Assembly (NCBI GenBank): GCA_041656935.1
Contig: JBBACQ010000002.1
Span: 27,603-91,602 of the forward strand
Source: Patescibacteria group bacterium
GTDB lineage: Bacteria > Patescibacteriota > Patescibacteriia > Patescibacteriales > UBA12465
Direction of reading: 5' to 3'
Length of the DNA stretch: 64,000 nucleotides
Within the stretch, counting starts at the first letter, position 1, and each line of letters starts with the position of its first letter. The notes under the pieces were generated by a model. The model was not told the DNA's origin. It ran no database searches and saw only the letters and a list, made by a program, of their open reading frames with translations. The position numbers and the translations under genes are program-made. Of the stretch, positions 8,012 to 30,949 are shown piece after piece.

Positions 8012-8131
8012 ATTTAATTTTAAGTTTAATAATTTTAATAATAGAAATAGCTTAAATAACGTTTATCTATGTTACTTAAAGATTAGTTAAAGTTTAAAAT
8101 GTTTTTTTAAGATAAGGGCAAAAATGCATTT

Positions 8132-8234
8132 CATATAACGTTCGCTGATATCTGACGTTTTGCCACTTCCTTTAAAAATCAATTTAGTGTGGCAAAATGT
8201 GGCTTTAGCCCTTGCAGATATCAGCTGTTGTGTG
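8132..8234 (-). other. attC-like imperfect-palindrome site, copy 1
   Basis: CATATAAC-GTTC-GCTGATATCTG...CAGATATCAGC-T-GTTGTGTG with inner stem TTTTGCCAC/GTGGCAAAA. Lies directly 3' of the nucleotidyltransferase stop codon. The structured repeat is certain; function as a recombination site is inference. Confidence 0.6.
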
Positions 8235-8287
8235 TCCCGAAGGGTCGGAGCGAAGCGGAGAAGTTGGTTTCTCTGGCGTCGTGATTA

Positions 8288-9058
8288 TTAAGTAGGACTT
8301 TTGATTTTCCAGCCATCAATATTAAATCCTCCCATTTTTTCAAGAACATGATTTGTTGCTATTTTATATTCATTCATCATTTTTGACTTATCTTTTAGGT
8401 TGATGGCTGAGACAATCATTTTAACAAATTTTTCATCTGGGAAATTGCTTACAAGATACTTTTTCTTGTCTTTTTCGTTTACTAGAAAACGTCTTAATTT
8501 ATGAATAGGTATTGAATCAAATTGCAAAAATTTCGCATAAGTTTCAAATAAATCATTCAAACAATTATAGAAAACAAAAAAGAATTCTTCCGACTTTGAA
8601 TCAAAAACTTCTTCTAAATTATCACACATATCCCAAATGTGGTATTTTGCTATTTCAATTTGGATCTTATTTTGCTTCGGATTTTTCTTTTGCAAATACT
8701 TTTTGGAATATTTAACAAGTTCTTTTAATTCGCCTGTTTTATCAAAAAGTATTTTTCCAGTACAGAACATGTGAGCGTTTATCTTTCTTCTTGATTTCAG
8801 ATCTTCTTCCAAGTATTGATGATGTCTTTTTGTTGGATTAGCGAAATATTCGATCAAAATACCATCGATAATTTCATTACCTCTTTCTCTCCAGGAAGTT
8901 TTTGCATCTAAAAGGATATGAATATCAATATCTGAATGATTACTAGGATTTCCAGTGATATAGCTACCGCAAACAATAGCCCCAATTACTTCTTTTTTGT
9001 TTTCCCATTTTTTGAGAAATTTTTGTAGGGCAATTCCCCAGTTTTCTTGTTTTTTCAT
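8288..9058 (-). CDS. nucleotidyltransferase-domain protein (Pol-beta superfamily, KNTase/ANT-like)
   Basis: 256 aa with N-terminal motif GSYITGNPSNHSDIDIHILLD (GS-X-D-X-D) and a helical C-terminal domain. Confidence 0.75.
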   Translation of the reverse strand: MKKQENWGIALQKFLKKWENKKEVIGAIVCGSYITGNPSNHSDIDIHILLDAKTSWRERGNEIIDGILIEYFANPTKRHHQYLEEDLKSRRKINAHMFCTGKILFDKTGELKELVKYSKKYLQKKNPKQNKIQIEIAKYHIWDMCDNLEEVFDSKSEEFFFVFYNCLNDLFETYAKFLQFDSIPIHKLRRFLVNEKDKKKYLVSNFPDEKFVKMIVSAINLKDKSKMMNEYKIATNHVLEKMGGFNIDGWKIKSPT

Positions 9059-9100
9059 AAGTCCTGCTTTTAATAAGATAAAACGTTGTTTTCTATTCTA

Positions 9101-9141
9101 GCCAGAGAAACCAATTACACACAACTGTTTATTATACGAAC
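9101..9141 (-). repeat. 5' boundary of the nucleotidyltransferase module
   Basis: GCCAGAGAAACCAA (9101-9114) is the reverse complement of 8264-8277. CACACAAC (9118-9125) complements GTTGTGTG at 8227-8234. CTGTTTATTATACGAAC (9125-9141) matches 30824-30840 at 16/17 positions. Confidence 0.7.
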
Positions 9142-9238
9142 AATCTCTCCACATTACCCCCCAACCAACCATACCAACCTTACAACAATTCTACCACACC
9201 CCCACAAAAATCTCAACCCCAAAAACCCCTCCCCAATT
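9139..9238. other. 100-nt G-free C/A-rich tract (G-run-rich on the minus strand)
   Basis: No G on the + strand between G9138 and G9239. The minus strand carries GGGG, GGGG, GGGG, GGGGG and GGGGGG runs. Confidence 0.9.
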
Positions 9239-9291
9239 GCCATTTTCAGAAAAATAATATAAACTCTCAACATAAACCTTAACCTAATTTT

Positions 9292-26273: not shown

Positions 26274-27272
26274 ATGAAAAAAACAATTCTTACCGGCGAT
26301 CGTCCTACCGGACAATTACATATCGGTCATTTATTTGGCTCCCTGCTTAATCGAGTTAAATTACAAAAAGAATACCAAACCTATATTATGTTAGCCGATG
26401 TTCAGGCCTTAACTGATAATTTTAATAACCCGGAAAAGGTTAGAACTAATGTTATGGAAGTAGCTATGGATAATTTAGCGGTTGGAATCGACCCTAAACA
26501 TTCAACTATTTTTATTCAATCTCTTATACCGGAAATTGCCGAACTAACTGTATTTTATTCTAATTTAGTAACAATTGCTCGTTTGCAAAGAAATCCAACG
26601 GTTAAAGAAGAAGTCGGCCAAAAACCGGAGCTCTTTAAAGATAGTGTAACCTTTGGATTCTTAGGTTATCCAGTTAGCCAAGCCGCCGATATTACTGCTT
26701 TTGAAGCTGATTTAGTGCCTGTCGGCGAAGACCAATTACCAGTGATAGAACAGACCCGAGAGATTGTTAAAAAATTTAATAATATTTATGGCCAAACCTT
26801 AGTTCTCCCCACAGCTTTAGTCAGCGATTTTGGTCGTGTTAAAGGGTTGGATGGAAATACCAAAATGGGCAAAAGCTTAGATAATGCTATTTTTATAGCC
26901 GACACCCCAGAAATAATTAGAACTAAAGTTAATAAAGCCTTAACTGATTCTCAGAAAGTAAAATTAAATGATAAGGGACGACCAGAAATTTGTACTGTTT
27001 TTTCTTATCATAAAATTTTCAGCCAAACTAATCTAACAACCATTAAACAAGAATGTCAAAATGGAACTCGAGGTTGTTCTCAATGTAAAAAAGAATTAGC
27101 CGAAAATATTATAGAATTTTTAAAACCAATTCAGGAAAAGAGAAAATATTATGAGAAAAGACCGAAGTTGGTGGAGAAAATATTGAAAGATGGAACTAAA
27201 AGAGCCAAAAAGAAAGCCGAAGAAACTTTAAAGAAGGTAAAGAAGAAGATGAAATTAGATTATTTTAAATAG
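26274..27272 (+). CDS. trpS: tryptophan--tRNA ligase
   Basis: 332 aa with GQLHIGHL and KMGKS motifs. Confidence 0.95.
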   Translation: MKKTILTGDRPTGQLHIGHLFGSLLNRVKLQKEYQTYIMLADVQALTDNFNNPEKVRTNVMEVAMDNLAVGIDPKHSTIFIQSLIPEIAELTVFYSNLVTIARLQRNPTVKEEVGQKPELFKDSVTFGFLGYPVSQAADITAFEADLVPVGEDQLPVIEQTREIVKKFNNIYGQTLVLPTALVSDFGRVKGLDGNTKMGKSLDNAIFIADTPEIIRTKVNKALTDSQKVKLNDKGRPEICTVFSYHKIFSQTNLTTIKQECQNGTRGCSQCKKELAENIIEFLKPIQEKRKYYEKRPKLVEKILKDGTKRAKKKAEETLKKVKKKMKLDYFK

Positions 27273-27280
27273 AAAATAAT

Positions 27281-27311
27281 AAAAAATAGAGGTCTAAGGC
27301 CTCTATTTTTT
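27281..27311. terminator. bidirectional terminator
   Basis: AAAAAATAGAGG-TCTAAGG-CCTCTATTTTTT between convergent trpS and the 93-aa gene. Confidence 0.65.
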
Positions 27312-27339
27312 ATTTAAACGAAATTATTTTAATAATAAT

Positions 27340-27621
27340 TTAAGATCTTCTTTCTTCTTGATAGGCCTTATATCTCCTAACGAATTCATCAATATCGTCT
27401 TTGTGGATTTTAACATCACAATAATTTCCTGGGTTTCCTAGAATACGAAGGCCATCGCCCAAATTTGGACAATCACAACTCTCATCACCGAAAGCATAGG
27501 CAACACCATATTGACCTTGTTTTTTTAATATCTGTCTTGAGACATCTCCAAAATTAACAAAACCGTCTTTATCTGCCTCAAATGAAGGTTTTTGTTCAAA
27601 CGATGATTCTTTGGGTCCCAT
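27340..27621 (-). CDS. hypothetical Cys-containing small protein
   Basis: 93-aa ORF with ATG start; no recognised motif. Confidence 0.5.
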   Translation of the reverse strand: MGPKESSFEQKPSFEADKDGFVNFGDVSRQILKKQGQYGVAYAFGDESCDCPNLGDGLRILGNPGNYCDVKIHKDDIDEFVRRYKAYQEERRS

Positions 27622-27714
27622 AGTTTTTAAATTAAATTTAAATTATATAATAAGTATTTTTTATTTTTTTACAAACTTCTTTTTTATCTATGAGTTAAAA
27701 ACTATTAAATATTT

Positions 27715-27802
27715 CACATAACGTTCGTTGATATCTGACGTTCTCCGTAGCGATAGCAGAGGAGAATGTGGCGAAGCCCTTGCAGATATCAGCTGTTATG
27801 TG
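27715..27802 (-). other. attC-like imperfect-palindrome site, copy 2
   Basis: CACATAAC-GTTC-GTTGATATCTG...CAGATATCAGC-T-GTTATGTG with inner stem TTCTCC/GGAGAA. Lies directly 3' of the HD gene stop codon. Confidence 0.6.
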
Positions 27803-27838
27803 CCCCAAAGGGTCGGAGCGATAGCGGAGATGTAAATC

Positions 27839-28423
27839 TTAAACTCCTTTTATTTTTCGTTGGTACTCATCCCAATCGTTTTTCATCTGTTCAAGCTTGG
27901 GTTTACCTAAACGTCGGCTAATATCAAAATTCAACAAATCAAATTTACCAAGCTTCCGTTGAATTTCATCCGTAAGTCCGTTTTTAAAAACCCACTCGAT
28001 CCAGAGCATATACAGTTTTTTATCAAAATACAAAGCGACCGCGTCTGCATCTTTTACAATTTTCATTTCGGTTGAATCACTACTATATGAAATAATATCA
28101 CGAACATGTTTTAATTCATCAATGTCTAGACCAAGACTGTTCAAGAATTCTTGAGATACGGATAAGTTAAAACTTTCGTGGTTTTTATGGAGCGTTTCCG
28201 GATCAGCATGATGGGTCTTGCCAATATCGTGTAGTAATGCACCAATCGCGGCTACGGTTTTATTACACTCAACTTCTTCAGATATTTTCATCACCAGCTC
28301 TTGGACTGTAACGCTATGGTTGTACATAACCGACCAATGATTAAAACTAAAATGCGGGTTCTTTTGAAAAGAACGTTTTACAAATTCTTTTGTTTTTTCA
28401 ACTAAATCGTGTTTATATTCCAT
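27839..28423 (-). CDS. HD-domain phosphohydrolase
   Basis: 194 aa with metal-binding ...GALLHDIGK... HD motif. Confidence 0.75.
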   Translation of the reverse strand: MEYKHDLVEKTKEFVKRSFQKNPHFSFNHWSVMYNHSVTVQELVMKISEEVECNKTVAAIGALLHDIGKTHHADPETLHKNHESFNLSVSQEFLNSLGLDIDELKHVRDIISYSSDSTEMKIVKDADAVALYFDKKLYMLWIEWVFKNGLTDEIQRKLGKFDLLNFDISRRLGKPKLEQMKNDWDEYQRKIKGV

Positions 28424-28450
28424 AAAAATAAAAGGGGTTTAAGATTTATT

Positions 28451-28547
28451 GCACATAACGTTTGCGGATATGAGAAGTTGCGACCGTAGGGAGCAATTTG
28501 GGTGAGCCCCGAGCCGAGGGGCGAACCTCATATCCGCTGTTATACGC
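28451..28547 (-). other. attC-like imperfect-palindrome site, copy 3
   Basis: GCACATAAC-GTTT-GCGGATATGAG...CTCATATCCGC-T-GTTATACGC. The 11-bp stem differs from copies 1 and 2 at three positions, all compensated on the other arm. Confidence 0.6.
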
Positions 28548-28601
28548 CCCGACGACTGAAAGGAGGAGAGCGCAGCGTGGCACGGAGCGAAGCGGAGTGA
28601 G

Positions 28602-28694
28602 TTCAAAAAATATTTTTCGTTCTCATTAATTATGATAGGCTTTCCTCAATTCTTATAAATTTGATTTTTTCCGTTTTGAAAAATGAAAGAGGGG
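28602..28694. repeat. left arm of a long imperfect inverted repeat flanking the rSAM-methyltransferase pair
   Basis: Collinear identical blocks versus the reverse complement of 30727-30813: 17 nt (28602-28618), 13 nt (28632-28644), 14 nt (28657-28670) and 7 nt (28688-28694). Confidence 0.8.
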
Positions 28695-28728
28695 TTAGGG
28701 GTGAATTTCATTTTTCAAATTCATTAAT

Positions 28729-29838
28729 TTAAGGATGTAAATGTTCTACGCAACCTTTATTTCTTGGAATGTGTTTTGCTAAATATTTTGTAGCTTCACA
28801 AAACTCTTTAACTATCCCTAAAAAATTTCCAGTTGAATAATAAGCCAAGCCCGCACAACCTCCACCACAATTTGATCTTATTTCGCAATTTTTGCATTCA
28901 TCAATAAATTTTGTATTTCTTTGCCTTATTCTTGTCATCTTTTCAGGATAATATATAATTTCATTTTTTTCTTTATCATATTTTCCAAAGATAAATTCTG
29001 AAAGTTGCGTTTTTCCTGAATATGCTAAATCACATCCAGAAACATAACCATCAGCAGTAAGTTGAGGCATTGGGATACAAGAACGACACGCGTAATTACA
29101 AGGTTCATCAAAATTTACTGTGAAAAAATTACCATAGTGCATTCCAATTTTTTCAGCATGTTTGTATGCTTTAACAAAATGTTCAGCAAATTCCTTTAAG
29201 TTTATAGGTGTAATTTGTTTTACTCCTGCTTTACCTTCTTGTTTGACGCTTTCAAAAACAGGTTCGGCATAAACCCATTTTATCCCTATTGAATTAAAAT
29301 AATCCAATATTTCAATTTGCTTATTTATGTCTTGGGGCAAGATTGTTGCTCTTGCACCAACAAAAACTCCTTCTTTTTGTAAAAATTTTACATTTCTGAC
29401 GATGGTGTCAGAAGTTTCTTGACCTCCTCTCGCAGGTCTGTTTCTATTTTGAATATAACTTGGTCCATCAATCGAAATCCATACTTCAGCAACATTTTTT
29501 GCAATCCATTTTGCCGTATCTTCTGAAAAAAATCCATTTGTTTGCAATTCTACAAACAAATCTTTTCCTTTAATTTTTTTAGCATATTCTGTAATTGCTT
29601 TTACTAAATCCATTCTTGTGGTTGGTTCTCCAACTCCATAAAATCTAATCATATTATTGCCAACACCAAAAAAGTCTGTTTTATCCCTGAAAAAATCATC
29701 CATACCTTTTTTGGCAAAATCCAAATCAATTGCTTTTTCCTCTCCAACATGTCTTGTGTCATTAACACAATAAACGCAGTTTAGATTGCATTTAGATGTT
29801 ATGAAAAAAGTTATTGTTCTTTTTCTTTCGTGAGCCAT
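28729..29838 (-). CDS. radical SAM enzyme with C-terminal SPASM-type Cys cluster
   Basis: 369 aa with CNLNCVYC (CxxxCxxC), GVGEPT and QTNG motifs, and C-terminal CKNCEIRSNCGGGCAG. Confidence 0.8.
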   Translation of the reverse strand: MAHERKRTITFFITSKCNLNCVYCVNDTRHVGEEKAIDLDFAKKGMDDFFRDKTDFFGVGNNMIRFYGVGEPTTRMDLVKAITEYAKKIKGKDLFVELQTNGFFSEDTAKWIAKNVAEVWISIDGPSYIQNRNRPARGGQETSDTIVRNVKFLQKEGVFVGARATILPQDINKQIEILDYFNSIGIKWVYAEPVFESVKQEGKAGVKQITPINLKEFAEHFVKAYKHAEKIGMHYGNFFTVNFDEPCNYACRSCIPMPQLTADGYVSGCDLAYSGKTQLSEFIFGKYDKEKNEIIYYPEKMTRIRQRNTKFIDECKNCEIRSNCGGGCAGLAYYSTGNFLGIVKEFCEATKYLAKHIPRNKGCVEHLHP

Positions 29839-29839
29839 A

Positions 29840-30649
29840 TTATTTCCTCGCAGTTAAAAAATAATAACCGACATTAGTATAATTTATTTTTTTATTATTT
29901 CCACGCATTAATTCAGGTTTTATATTTTTGAAATTAGAATTTTTTAATTGTTCTAAGATTATTGGTAGGCAAACTTTTAATTCTTCAATTCTCAAAATAT
30001 CCATAAAAGCTGTTTTGATTTGATCAATCACGTCTGCCTCTTGAGGTTTTGGCATTGATAAAATTTGTGCAGAAGCATATTTTAAAATATTTTCAATAAA
30101 TTGTACTTTATTTTTTGGGTTAAAATTTTTATCAAATTCATAATCTGGAATAAATACTTCAGCAACAATTAAAGTACCTCCAACTTTTAGATTATTATAG
30201 ATATTTTTTATTGCTTTTGGTTTGTCAAAAAGATGATGATAAGTAGCTGTTAAAATTACTATATCAAAATAATTTTCTTTCTGAAAAATTTCAGCTGTCC
30301 CATTTAGGATTTTCGCCTTACCTTTTGTTTCTTTGTTTGTCATATCTCTAAAAACTTTTTCAGGTTCAACAACGACATACTCTTGAATATTTTTATTATT
30401 GATAATTTTGCCAGCTAAAATACCTGGTCCAGAGCCATATTCCAAAATTTTGACAGGTCTTTTTTGTTGGTTGATAATTTTTTCAATTCTATCAAACCAC
30501 TCTAAATATAATGGATATTGTTTAACTTGTTCTAAGTATTGTTTTCTTATGGTTGTTGGGTCTGTCACTGAATATCCTTTTTGCAAAGATTCCCCTAATT
30601 CATTTATTGATTTCCAGATTTGGTTTGAATTTTTTTTAATCATATTCAT
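29840..30649 (-). CDS. class I SAM-dependent methyltransferase
   Basis: 269 aa with motif I ILEYGSGPGILA. Its stop codon lies 1 nt from the rSAM start, so the two are probably co-transcribed. Confidence 0.75.
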   Translation of the reverse strand: MNMIKKNSNQIWKSINELGESLQKGYSVTDPTTIRKQYLEQVKQYPLYLEWFDRIEKIINQQKRPVKILEYGSGPGILAGKIINNKNIQEYVVVEPEKVFRDMTNKETKGKAKILNGTAEIFQKENYFDIVILTATYHHLFDKPKAIKNIYNNLKVGGTLIVAEVFIPDYEFDKNFNPKNKVQFIENILKYASAQILSMPKPQEADVIDQIKTAFMDILRIEELKVCLPIILEQLKNSNFKNIKPELMRGNNKKINYTNVGYYFLTARK

Positions 30650-30726
30650 TAAGTATAGTTAAGAATTTAAAAAGTCTTCTAATATAAATCGTTTTCGGAA
30701 CGAAGTGGAGAAAACACCATATTATC

Positions 30727-30813
30727 CCCCTCTATAAATAAAGAAAAAATCAAATTTATTCCCCTTTGAAAGCCTATCATTTCTTATTCTCCGTTAGAAA
30801 AATATTTTTTGAA
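30727..30813. repeat. right arm of the long imperfect inverted repeat
   Basis: Blocks at 30797-30813, 30768-30780, 30744-30757 and 30727-30733 are reverse complements of the left-arm blocks. Confidence 0.8.
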
Positions 30814-30815
30814 TT

Positions 30816-30840
30816 GCATATAACTGGTTATTATACGAAC
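30816..30840 (-). repeat. 5' boundary of the rSAM-methyltransferase module
   Basis: GCATATAAC (30816-30824) complements GTTATACGC at 28539-28547 at 8/9 positions. CTGGTTATTATACGAAC (30824-30840) matches 9125-9141 at 16/17. Confidence 0.7.
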
Positions 30841-30949
30841 TTATTACTTAATAATTCCAAAAATCTTCAAATTATGCGAATAAAAAAATTATTTTTTATT
30901 AAAACCATTATTATTATAACAAGAAATATAACCAAAATCAATTTAAACC

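Follow-up and report, generated by a model that had tools for sequence, protein, structure and literature searches.

Val et al. reportedly showed in 2005 that the attP(+) hairpin formed by the single-stranded DNA (ssDNA) of the CTX phage integrates at dif by means of the host Xer recombinases; CTX integration is irreversible. The pdif modules of Acinetobacter plasmids consist of genes that are flanked by XerC/XerD sites and found in different contexts, the sites being plain 28-bp duplexes in alternating orientation. In the XerS/difSL and XerH/difH systems, dif adjoins the recombinase gene, and we know of no XerS, XerH or XerA site that collects arrays of hairpin-bounded cassettes. For integrons, the current view is that the integrase IntI passed from double-stranded to single-stranded recombination when it acquired the I2 helix (PMC4792948; PMC7790495). 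Here we analyze a stretch of 64,000 nucleotides from a Patescibacteria group bacterium (GenBank assembly GCA_041656935.1, contig JBBACQ010000002.1, positions 27,603 to 91,602; hereafter the window, whose own numbering is used throughout) that contains three related imperfect palindromes, each located 3' of an unrelated gene or gene pair. Comparative sequence evidence makes it probable that each of these elements is a structure-specific site of recombination closing the 3' end of a mobile gene cassette, and that the three cassettes were captured at two dif/attI-like sites. The logic of the arrangement is that of an integron, the enzyme and the double-stranded site appear to be Xer/dif-like, and the folded substrate would resemble the CTX-phage attP(+) hairpin. 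This is apparently an undescribed cassette-capture variant of the type of integrons and integrative mobile elements exploiting Xer (IMEX): the searchable literature yielded no description of such a candidate-phyla or Xer-like integron-like system, and IntegronFinder-based surveys may already count some of the sites as attC.

Hairpins and cassette limits

The window holds two arrays, one with a single cassette at 9.1 kb and one with two cassettes at 27.7-30.8 kb (Table 1). A preliminary description, made from the sequence without database searches, had placed the three palindromes on the + strand, 3' of minus-strand genes, and had interpreted them as attC-like recombination sites. Positions and strand were confirmed: the hairpins lie 53, 36 and 181 nt after the stop codons of, respectively, a Pol-beta-type nucleotidyltransferase (NTase; 8288-9058), an HD protein (27839-28423) and a radical-SAM protein (28729-29838) that is preceded by a methyltransferase (29840-30649; both assigned by Pfam), all encoded on the minus strand. 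Folded as ssDNA or as RNA, the + strand forms an outer stem of 6-9 bp, an inner stem of 10-11 bp and a forked (Y-shaped) tip, with a bulge of 3-4 nt (TTC/TTT) confined to the 5' arm, in agreement with the bulge on one arm, the stem of about 11 bp and the branched tip originally outlined. Folding of both strands, which the preliminary description had recommended, showed that the minus strand folds more poorly than the + strand, both as DNA and as RNA, and that the + strand fold includes an unequal central region and a conserved GTTY bulge, with no extrahelical bases. The three compensated differences that set copy 3 apart from copies 1 and 2 are as first reported.

A hand-written scan for AAC...GTT hairpins was too strict, and a covariance model of the hairpins that includes the window copies (R1) was used in its place. 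In the window, R1 produced exactly three matches, of 68, 58 and 50 bits (E ~1e-14 to 1e-9). With a pattern based on the window copies, we obtained 24 loci from viral contigs and 79 from genomes, in which R1 then located further copies. We aligned 87 relatives of the window type (type B; inner stem such as GCGGATATGAG or GCTGATATCTG) from other genomes by fitting them to R1, a procedure that somewhat favors structure. In this alignment, 92.6% of the cells are paired, double changes occur in 9 of the 11 inner-stem pairs, and the covariation score is 0.462, compared with 0.119 for shuffles and at most 0.09 for slid controls. The AAC and GTT triplets are effectively invariant, the sole departure being two T.G in place of C.G at one triplet position, and the GTTY bulge is conserved in 67 of the 87 copies. 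Type B hairpins reside mostly in metagenome-assembled genomes (MAGs) of Patescibacteria (Peribacteria, Moranbacteria, Buchananbacteria, Magasanikbacteria, Falkowbacteria and Parcubacteria) and also in some MAGs labelled archaea or Gammaproteobacteria, with the flanking genes almost always on the strand opposite to the model. The search of related genomes and metagenomes for the same architecture beside other genes revealed tandem arrays with one hairpin per gene; in a complete Peribacteria genome (L043), six hairpins follow one another within 4 kb, one after each gene and always opposite the gene strand. The cargo of the relatives is diverse and includes a short-chain dehydrogenase/reductase (SDR), a P-type ATPase, a phosphoenolpyruvate (PEP)-utilising enzyme, methyltransferases, a vitamin transporter and an NTase. 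Patescibacteria MAGs have cassettes in common with the window, and positions 27144-28569 recur as an exact copy in JGI metagenome 3300014204 (L025).

The outer boxes had originally been taken to form a stem within each element. The AAC/GTT part of that stem holds, but the remainder pairs with its own partner no better than with a random one and pairs instead with the box of the neighboring element. Among 51 pairs of neighboring elements, a 3' box and the 5' box of the following element match at 5.37 of the 7 variable positions, compared with 3.49 for a 3' box and its own 5' box and 3.48 for random boxes; the neighbor's box was the better match in 40 of the 51 cases and the worse one in six. 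Such box exchange is the classical signature of integron cassettes, in which every unit that is inserted brings along a complete site in two halves, divided at G|TT, and the exchange of boxes between neighbors also accounts for the G.T wobbles that had been noticed in the outer boxes of the window copies. The likeness to integron core sites drawn in the preliminary description extends to the AAC and GTT triplets; the RYYY/RRRY rule for the outer bases is not strictly followed, the four outer box bases (e.g., ACAT, GTAT) deviating from strict RYYY and varying with the neighboring element.

Comparison of related arrays delimits the mobile unit. By blastn, a region of a Peribacteria MAG (L059) with unrelated flanks has 92% identity over 1019 nt to the NTase gene, the tail and hairpin 1; the homology sets in exactly at G|TTGTGTGT and extends to a few bases past the G|TT of the hairpin. 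At its 5' end the NTase cassette has GTTGTGTGT, the very sequence of the 3' box of hairpin 1, just as the 5' end of the HD cassette, GTTATGTGC, equals the 3' box of hairpin 2; the methyltransferase + radical-SAM cassette starts with GTTATATGC, which is to be compared with GTTATACGC in the 3' box of hairpin 3. In L066, a Moranbacteria MAG, the homolog of hairpin 3 is joined directly to the homolog of the 93-aa open reading frame (ORF) of the window, an arrangement that corresponds to the window minus the HD gene and hairpin 2. In the Peribacteria array mentioned above, a 686-nt cassette is present twice with 98.7% identity; the stretch of identity runs from the AAC in its own 5' box as far as the AAC(GTTT) in the 5' box of the hairpin that follows. 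Collectively, these three comparisons indicate that a gene and the hairpin downstream of it move together, so that the gene strand corresponds to the 'top' strand of a cassette and the + strand of the window to the 'bottom' strand.

The inner stem contains 19 G.T pairs on the model (+) strand compared with 5 A.C (p = 0.007), suggesting that selection acts on the folding of the strand antisense to the genes. This asymmetry would argue against an element of the sense mRNA and would match the bottom-strand folding of attC sites (PMC9892861). The unit itself proved larger than the 88-103 nt of the preliminary description: the hairpin has this length, but the repeated unit is longer because a conserved tail follows on the + strand. 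The sequence CCCGAAGGGTCGGAGCGAAGCGGAG is the tail of copies 1 and 2, and copy 3 carries a 53-nt version. On the folding strand, GCGAAGC, GGCGAAGCC and CCCGAAGGG recur in the tails and tips (e.g., 8236-8260, 27770-27779 and 28590-28597). These motifs are mini-hairpins with GAA triloops, which are unusually stable in DNA, and they fit a role in ssDNA better than a role in RNA.

Recombinase genes and the dif-like core site

In three genome loci, a tyrosine recombinase gene lies beside the hairpins, and an alignment of these three proteins retrieved 80 metagenome loci that are anchored only on the protein. Within these 80 loci, R1 produced 33 matches, all 33 upstream of the recombinase start (in 218 kb of upstream sequence) and none downstream (in 371 kb); 32 of the 33 are on the recombinase strand, so that the cassette genes are divergent from the recombinase. 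At least one match was present in 24 of the 49 loci having at least 700 nt of upstream sequence, and in the control set, loci of viral contigs with more distant Xer-like genes, 23 of 24 gave no match. Gene-orientation maps around the recombinases of the long metagenome loci revealed only the expected divergence.

The linked recombinases are proteins of about 270 aa, whose best solved relative is the Vibrio integron integrase VchIntIA (2A3V; 194 bits), with lower scores for archaeal XerA (185 and 177 bits) and XerD (104 bits). The insertion of about 41 residues that is characteristic of IntI (I2 helix region) is present in VchIntIA and absent from the linked recombinases in the alignment. The NCBIfam integron-integrase model TIGR02249 matches them in two separate stretches, with scores of 200-236 bits that do not reach its cut-off of 265, and scores with the XerA model NF040815 are 212-230 bits, for a cut-off of 220. 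The array-linked recombinase of a Falkowbacteria MAG (L046, 5862-6737, minus strand) has the highest TIGR02249 score, 236 bits, and carries a 15-residue insertion, LDSLNKSLGDARRGR, where the extra domain of IntI sits. Candidate-phyla enzymes have been placed in a Xer-related 'Cand' subgroup (Smyshlyaev et al., PMC8138268), and until now these Xer-like 'Cand' recombinases have been taken solely for presumed Xer substitutes in chromosome-dimer resolution (PMC8138268).

In the orientation of the genes, the two arrays of the window share their starting point, a double-stranded site of 17-19 nt, GTTCGTATAATAAMCAG|TT, which has only two exact copies in the window, and both end in G|TTATRTGAAAT. Of 62 metagenome loci that were retrieved independently, 47 have the motif CGYATA-N-AG|TT-N5-(G)AAAT at about 100 nt upstream from the start codon of the recombinase; a second copy of TTCGYATAA is present some 45 nt farther from the gene in 13 of the 14 recombinase-linked metagenome loci inspected. 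Judged by its sequence, the core motif of the window is the site found upstream of the recombinase genes; as an exact 12-mer it had no match in the other loci, where it is recognizable only as a degenerate motif beside recombinase genes. Furthermore, the right arm of the site and the 3' box of the hairpin nearest to it have the same sequence in nine metagenome loci and one genome locus (L100), which indicates that the first cassette sits exactly at AG|TT. Consistent limits are seen in array II, with which the homology of four relatives (L068, L041, L090 and L047) starts at or just after GTTATAYGC.

Xer enzymes cut at the border between an arm and the central region. When the hairpin arm ATTTCAYATAA is set beside the XerD arm of Escherichia coli, ATTTAACATAA, the predicted bottom-strand cut AA|C falls at this border, as it does for Xer, which suggests that the 5' side of the hairpin with its flank (ATTTCACATAA|C) is a Xer-type arm; by the same analogy, the GTTYGC segment may represent the central region and the 11-bp stem the second arm. 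The reconstructed double-stranded site, TTCGTATAA-TAACCAG-TTATGTGAAAT, matches E. coli dif (GGTGCGCATAA-TGTATA-TTATGTTAAAT; sequence as in PMC3025954) at 10 of the 11 positions of the right arm.

These patterns can be accommodated in the following scheme. The anatomy, the covariation, the cassette limits, the box exchange and the linkage to the recombinase gene and its site in other genomes are observed; that the DNA folds as a single strand, which strand is cut and that replication resolves the product are drawn by analogy, and the enzyme that would act in this organism is likewise deduced. A free cassette would carry one complete hairpin, and its bottom strand (the + strand of the window, antisense to the gene) would fold into the forked structure, the stem of which would present ATTTCAYATAA as the Xer-type arm, then some 7 nt of central region containing the GTTY bulge, and finally the 11-bp stem as the second arm. 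A Xer/IntI-like tyrosine recombinase would then exchange the bottom strand at AA|C, which reads G|TT in the sense of the gene; either the double-stranded dif/attI-like core site GTTCGYATAA-TAAMCAG|TTATRTGAAAT or another hairpin would serve as partner. Replication would resolve the product, as in attC x attI recombination of integrons or in CTX-phage integration at dif, and successive insertions would build an array that reads away from the site. The tandem arrays, the box exchange, the cassette limits at G|TT, the position relative to the recombinase gene and the G.T asymmetry all support the initial proposal that the hairpins are attC-like recombination sites. A broader proposition, namely that they belong to a widespread gene-capture platform of Patescibacteria, in which a Xer-type recombinase lacking the I2 domain joins folded ssDNA hairpins to a dif-like site beside its own gene and which is intermediate between Xer/dif (and CTX-like IMEX) and integrons, appears to us evenly balanced between right and wrong.

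Other features and the wider hairpin family

The coordinates of the hairpins, cassettes and accompanying sequences are collected in Table 1.

Table 1. Features of the two hairpin-cassette arrays in the 64-kb window
Feature	Position	Strand	Description
Hairpin 1	8132..8234	+	attC-like site of the NTase cassette; predicted crossover AA|C 8138|8139; R1 68.3 bits; fold z = -4.9 (as DNA)
Hairpin 2	27715..27802	+	attC-like site of the HD cassette; predicted crossover AA|C 27721|27722; R1 58.2 bits; fold z = -4.3 (as DNA)
Hairpin 3	28452..28546/7	+	attC-like site of the methyltransferase + radical-SAM cassette; predicted crossover AA|C 28458|28459; R1 50 bits; fold z = -2.8 (as DNA)
NTase cassette	8139..9124	-	986 bp: own R' remainder TTGTGTGT, leader, NTase gene, tail, hairpin 1 up to G
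HD-domain cassette	27722..28458	-	737 bp; between the crossover points of hairpins 3 and 2
Methyltransferase + radical-SAM cassette	28459..30823	-	2365 bp; limits are core site II and hairpin 3; Pfam assignments
Tail 1	8236..8260	+	CCCGAAGGGTCGGAGCGAAGCGGAG; between NTase stop codon and hairpin 1; holds GAA-loop mini-hairpins; conserved in copy 2 and L059
Tail 2	27803..27829	+	CCCCAAAGGGTCGGAGCGATAGCGGAG; from alignment A1
Tail 3	28547..28599	+	long version CCCCGACGACTGAAAGGAGGAGAGCGCAGCGTGGCACGGAGCGAAGCGGAGTG, 53 nt; kept in L066, L068, L041, L080, L087, L090
Core site I	9123..9141	-	GTTCGTATAATAAACAG|TT; dif/attI-like candidate insertion point at head of NTase cassette
Core site II	30822..30840	-	GTTCGTATAATAACCAG|TT; head of two-cassette array
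Distal half-site	30865..30880	-	TTCGCATAATTTGAAG; about 40 nt upstream of core site II; like the accessory repeat beside recombinase genes
Right arm at end of array I	8128..8138	-	TTATATGAAAT
Right arm at end of array II	27711..27721	-	TTATGTGAAAT; 10/11 positions as in XerD arm of E. coli dif (TTATGTTAAAT)
Leader inverted repeat	30668..30815	-	inside methyltransferase + radical-SAM cassette; alignment A3
Trailer inverted repeat	28600..28735	+	homologous to leader on opposite strand; alignment A3

The window is AT-rich (GC content of about 32%), and the arrays are neighbored by housekeeping genes (YchF, Trp/Tyr-tRNA synthetase, TopA and DprA). An unusually G-rich tract (ggttggtatggttggttggggggtaatgtggagag, with further Gs upstream) is located at 9150-9240 on the minus strand, just upstream of core site I, in a genome that is otherwise AT-rich; a distal half-site of the site II type was not recognizable upstream of core site I. 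A recombinase contig from metagenome series Ga0172381, the same series as the source of the window, ends exactly at the core site ...CGCATAAAAACGAG|TTATAT (L147, 1-20), which suggests that assemblies often break at these arrays.

Genes are encoded on the + strand between 19 and 27 kb and on the minus strand between 27 and 64 kb, so that array II, with + genes to the left and minus genes to the right of about 27.3 kb, sits at a convergence point. This point could be the replication terminus; GC skew proved uninformative as a test of a terminus at array II because it tracks local gene orientation. A canonical bidirectional T-run terminator, AAAAAATAGAGGCCTTAGACCTCTATTTTTT, is located at 27281-27310, between the 93-aa ORF and the convergent tRNA synthetase gene. 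The hairpins themselves were also considered as intrinsic terminators and this possibility was ruled out: no T-run follows them in either sense and the genome uses T-run terminators elsewhere, so that the earlier remark that they are not ordinary terminators holds.

The methyltransferase + radical-SAM cassette contains, just inside its ends, inverted repeats of about 140 nt (TTCAAAAAATATTTTTC...ATGATAGGCTTTC...ATAAATTTGATTTTTTC). The same pair of repeats flanks unrelated cargo elsewhere, including a P-type ATPase, a PEP-utilising enzyme, a Vut_1 transporter and OmdA (L068, L041, L090, L047 and L166). The repeat holds a promoter-like sequence, ATGATA-N17-TAAATT, and a tiny conserved ORF (MVFSPLRSENDLY).

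Hairpin 3 is 97.5% identical to its counterpart in the Moranbacteria MAG. Its hairpin and tail are 85-91% identical to those of MAGs labelled Methanolobus (L090), Halobacteriota (L087) and Gammaproteobacteria (L080), whereas a second Gammaproteobacteria MAG (L056) is more distant, at about 77%. Two further loci (L068 and L041; 90-92%) align to hairpin 3 only from about position 28495, that is, over its 3' part, the tail and the trailer. An Altarchaeum MAG (L039) has a three-copy array of the hairpin family of its own, without such similarity to copy 3. The copies in archaeal and Gammaproteobacteria MAGs reflect either transfer of cassettes across phyla or mis-binned Patescibacteria contigs.

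A sister hairpin family (type A), with the stem GGCGGCTTGGCG and the tail CTGGGCGGTTTATCAGCAC TAAATTTAATTTGAAA, forms arrays after small ORFs in IMG/VR contigs (L001-L020), in two further loci (L048 and L045), in the huge-phage records LR756502.1 and LR745206.1 and in Bacteroidota MAGs, and the box-exchange signature is present in this family as well. The host contigs are genuine phages, as judged by their terminase and helicase genes. The candidate ORFs that emerged when an integrase was sought in the viral-contig arrays were a helicase, a terminase, a methylase and a phosphoesterase, with no recombinase among them. The supplements of PMC9892861 provided no link between type A copies and the published phage attCs. 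In blastn searches, a type A copy matched only the two huge-phage records, which are unannotated, and a window copy matched no phage record. A 74-kb viral contig (L200; 115-4305 and 5690-6874) encodes a 394-aa tyrosine recombinase that is only 30% identical to the candidate-phyla enzymes and has three type-A-like hairpins upstream, on the same strand.

Alternative explanations and biological meaning

With integrons, the arrays share the presence of one imperfect palindrome 3' of each promoter-poor ORF, the tandem arrangement in one orientation, the invariant AAC/GTT triplets with a putative crossover at G|TT, the complementarity between the bases that open a cassette and the inverse core of the site it carries, a folding strand that appears to be antisense to the genes, the diversity of the cargo and, in the relatives, a recombinase gene that is divergent from the array, with a double-stranded site and an accessory repeat between the two. 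Could the hairpins then be ordinary attC sites, forming clusters of attC sites lacking integron integrases (CALINs) that depend on a classical IntI, complete with extra domain, from another part of the genome? The AAC/GTT boxes, the length of 88-103 nt, the position 3' of ORFs, and the arrays with their box exchange would all suit such an origin, and both integrons and CALINs have been recorded from many phyla as well as from Archaea and phages (PMC9668308; PMC9892861). We nonetheless regard it as very unlikely. The preliminary description had recommended a search with the attC covariance model; as a proxy, we built a model (R2) from eight attCs shown to recombine with IntI1 (PMC9668308, data S9/S10). 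R2, which is small and differs from IntegronFinder's own attC model, gave no match at E <= 10 with default filters on the window or on type A or type B copies, and with the filters off it returned only 11.5 bits (E ~1) and 9.9 bits, on the two strands of hairpin 2, and found no type A or type B array. The geometry differs as well: the central region of the hairpin measures 6-7 nt on one strand versus 3-4 nt on the other, whereas the canonical attC spacer is 5 x 6 nt, and the second stem is a perfect one of 10-11 bp with the conserved GTTY bulge instead of extrahelical bases. Furthermore, the array-linked recombinase lacks the IntI-specific insertion and scores below the TIGR02249 cut-off, the double-stranded partner site resembles dif, a conserved tail accompanies many of the copies, and the core site, although present twice in the window, has no adjacent recombinase gene there. 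'attC-like', rather than 'attC', is therefore the right wording, given the lack of an R2 match, the absence of the IntI domain from the recombinase and the dif-like partner site.

A role in the sense transcript, in which the hairpins would be stabilizers of 3' untranslated regions (UTRs), processing sites, terminators without T-runs or elements like repetitive extragenic palindromes (REP) and bacterial interspersed mosaic elements (BIME), with no part in DNA recombination, seems to us very improbable. In its favor, the RNA folds are stable, the hairpins lie between co-directional genes, and hairpin 3, located only 28 nt upstream of the HD start codon, is probably transcribed through. However, the better-folding strand is antisense to the genes, with the excess of G.T over A.C pairs described above, the outer boxes match those of the neighboring element and not their own, the cassettes are delimited at G|TT, and the position of the hairpins relative to the recombinase gene is fixed. 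Rfam models at their gathering scores detected only four tRNAs in the window and no family for the hairpins. Strand asymmetry and box pattern thus argue against structures that act in the 3' UTR as RNA only, an outcome that the preliminary description had named, together with the lack of an attC-model match, as fatal to its interpretation; a secondary effect of the hairpins at the RNA level is possible. Least plausible of all, and in our estimate scarcely credible, is that miniature inverted-repeat transposable elements (MITEs), ends like those of palindrome-associated transposable elements (PATEs), of the IS200/IS605 type or of another transposon, have landed between the genes. The repeated unit of about 130-150 nt (hairpin and tail) is conserved across distant MAGs, and one cassette has the 140-nt inverted repeats, which speaks for such elements; but the 64 kb contain just three copies, which have the same orientation with respect to the genes, and the many copies with target-site duplications that had been proposed as a sign of a MITE were not found, the window copies having neither target-site duplications nor flanking direct repeats, and no transposase. 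The recurring unit in the comparisons with the Peribacteria and Moranbacteria loci (L059, L066 and L043) is the gene plus its hairpin and not the hairpin alone, and box exchange is not expected from transposition.

Another parallel is provided by IMEX of the CTX type. The two would have in common a forked hairpin some 90-150 nt long whose stem mimics a Xer site and whose central region is mismatched or bulged, a dif-type partner site, a Xer-family enzyme without an extra domain, and tandem insertions at the site. In contrast to phage genomes, the units here are single-gene cassettes of 0.7-2.4 kb, which form long arrays of six or more, and the site lies beside the recombinase gene; because the cassettes recur at different positions and in different genomes, they apparently also leave, unlike CTX. 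The pdif modules are likewise small gene modules bounded by Xer-type sites, but they have no hairpins, no unidirectional arrays by a recombinase gene and no box-exchange signature. With the XerS, XerH and archaeal XerA systems, the arrays share a single Xer-like recombinase and a core site immediately upstream of its own gene.

Several observations weigh against the interpretation of the hairpins as recombination sites. No tyrosine recombinase was found in the 64-kb window, either with a regular expression or with a hidden Markov model (HMM) of three recombinases run against all six-frame ORFs; the enzyme would thus have to act in trans, encoded elsewhere in the genome. Recombination itself is deduced entirely from comparative patterns. 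Many of the comparison loci were retrieved with a pattern taken from the window copies, and R1 contains those copies, so that the recombinase-anchored loci are the sole independent set. The G.T asymmetry could be partly inflated by the orientation of the model, and the genes of type A arrays lie on the model strand, a polarity opposite to that of type B. Several matches in MAGs of other phyla may be binning errors. The tails and the 140-nt inverted repeats of one cassette are left unexplained by the model, as are the two sites without a recombinase that lie 21.7 kb apart in the window.

Integrons are the standard example of a gene-capture device, and their origin is an open question. The hairpin system described here has the logic of an integron, yet no I2 insertion, a dif-like site and a bulge in the place of extrahelical bases. 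Should the mechanism hold, the capture of hairpin cassettes would not need the extra domain that is thought to have enabled single-strand recombination, and the origin of integrons would become directly testable with a natural system. Standard integron finders probably miss arrays of this kind because they require the IntI domain and canonical attC geometry, and the cassette pools in groundwater and sediment metagenomes may accordingly be under-counted. If the interpretation is correct, these arrays would provide a concrete route of gene gain for the very small genomes of the candidate phyla.

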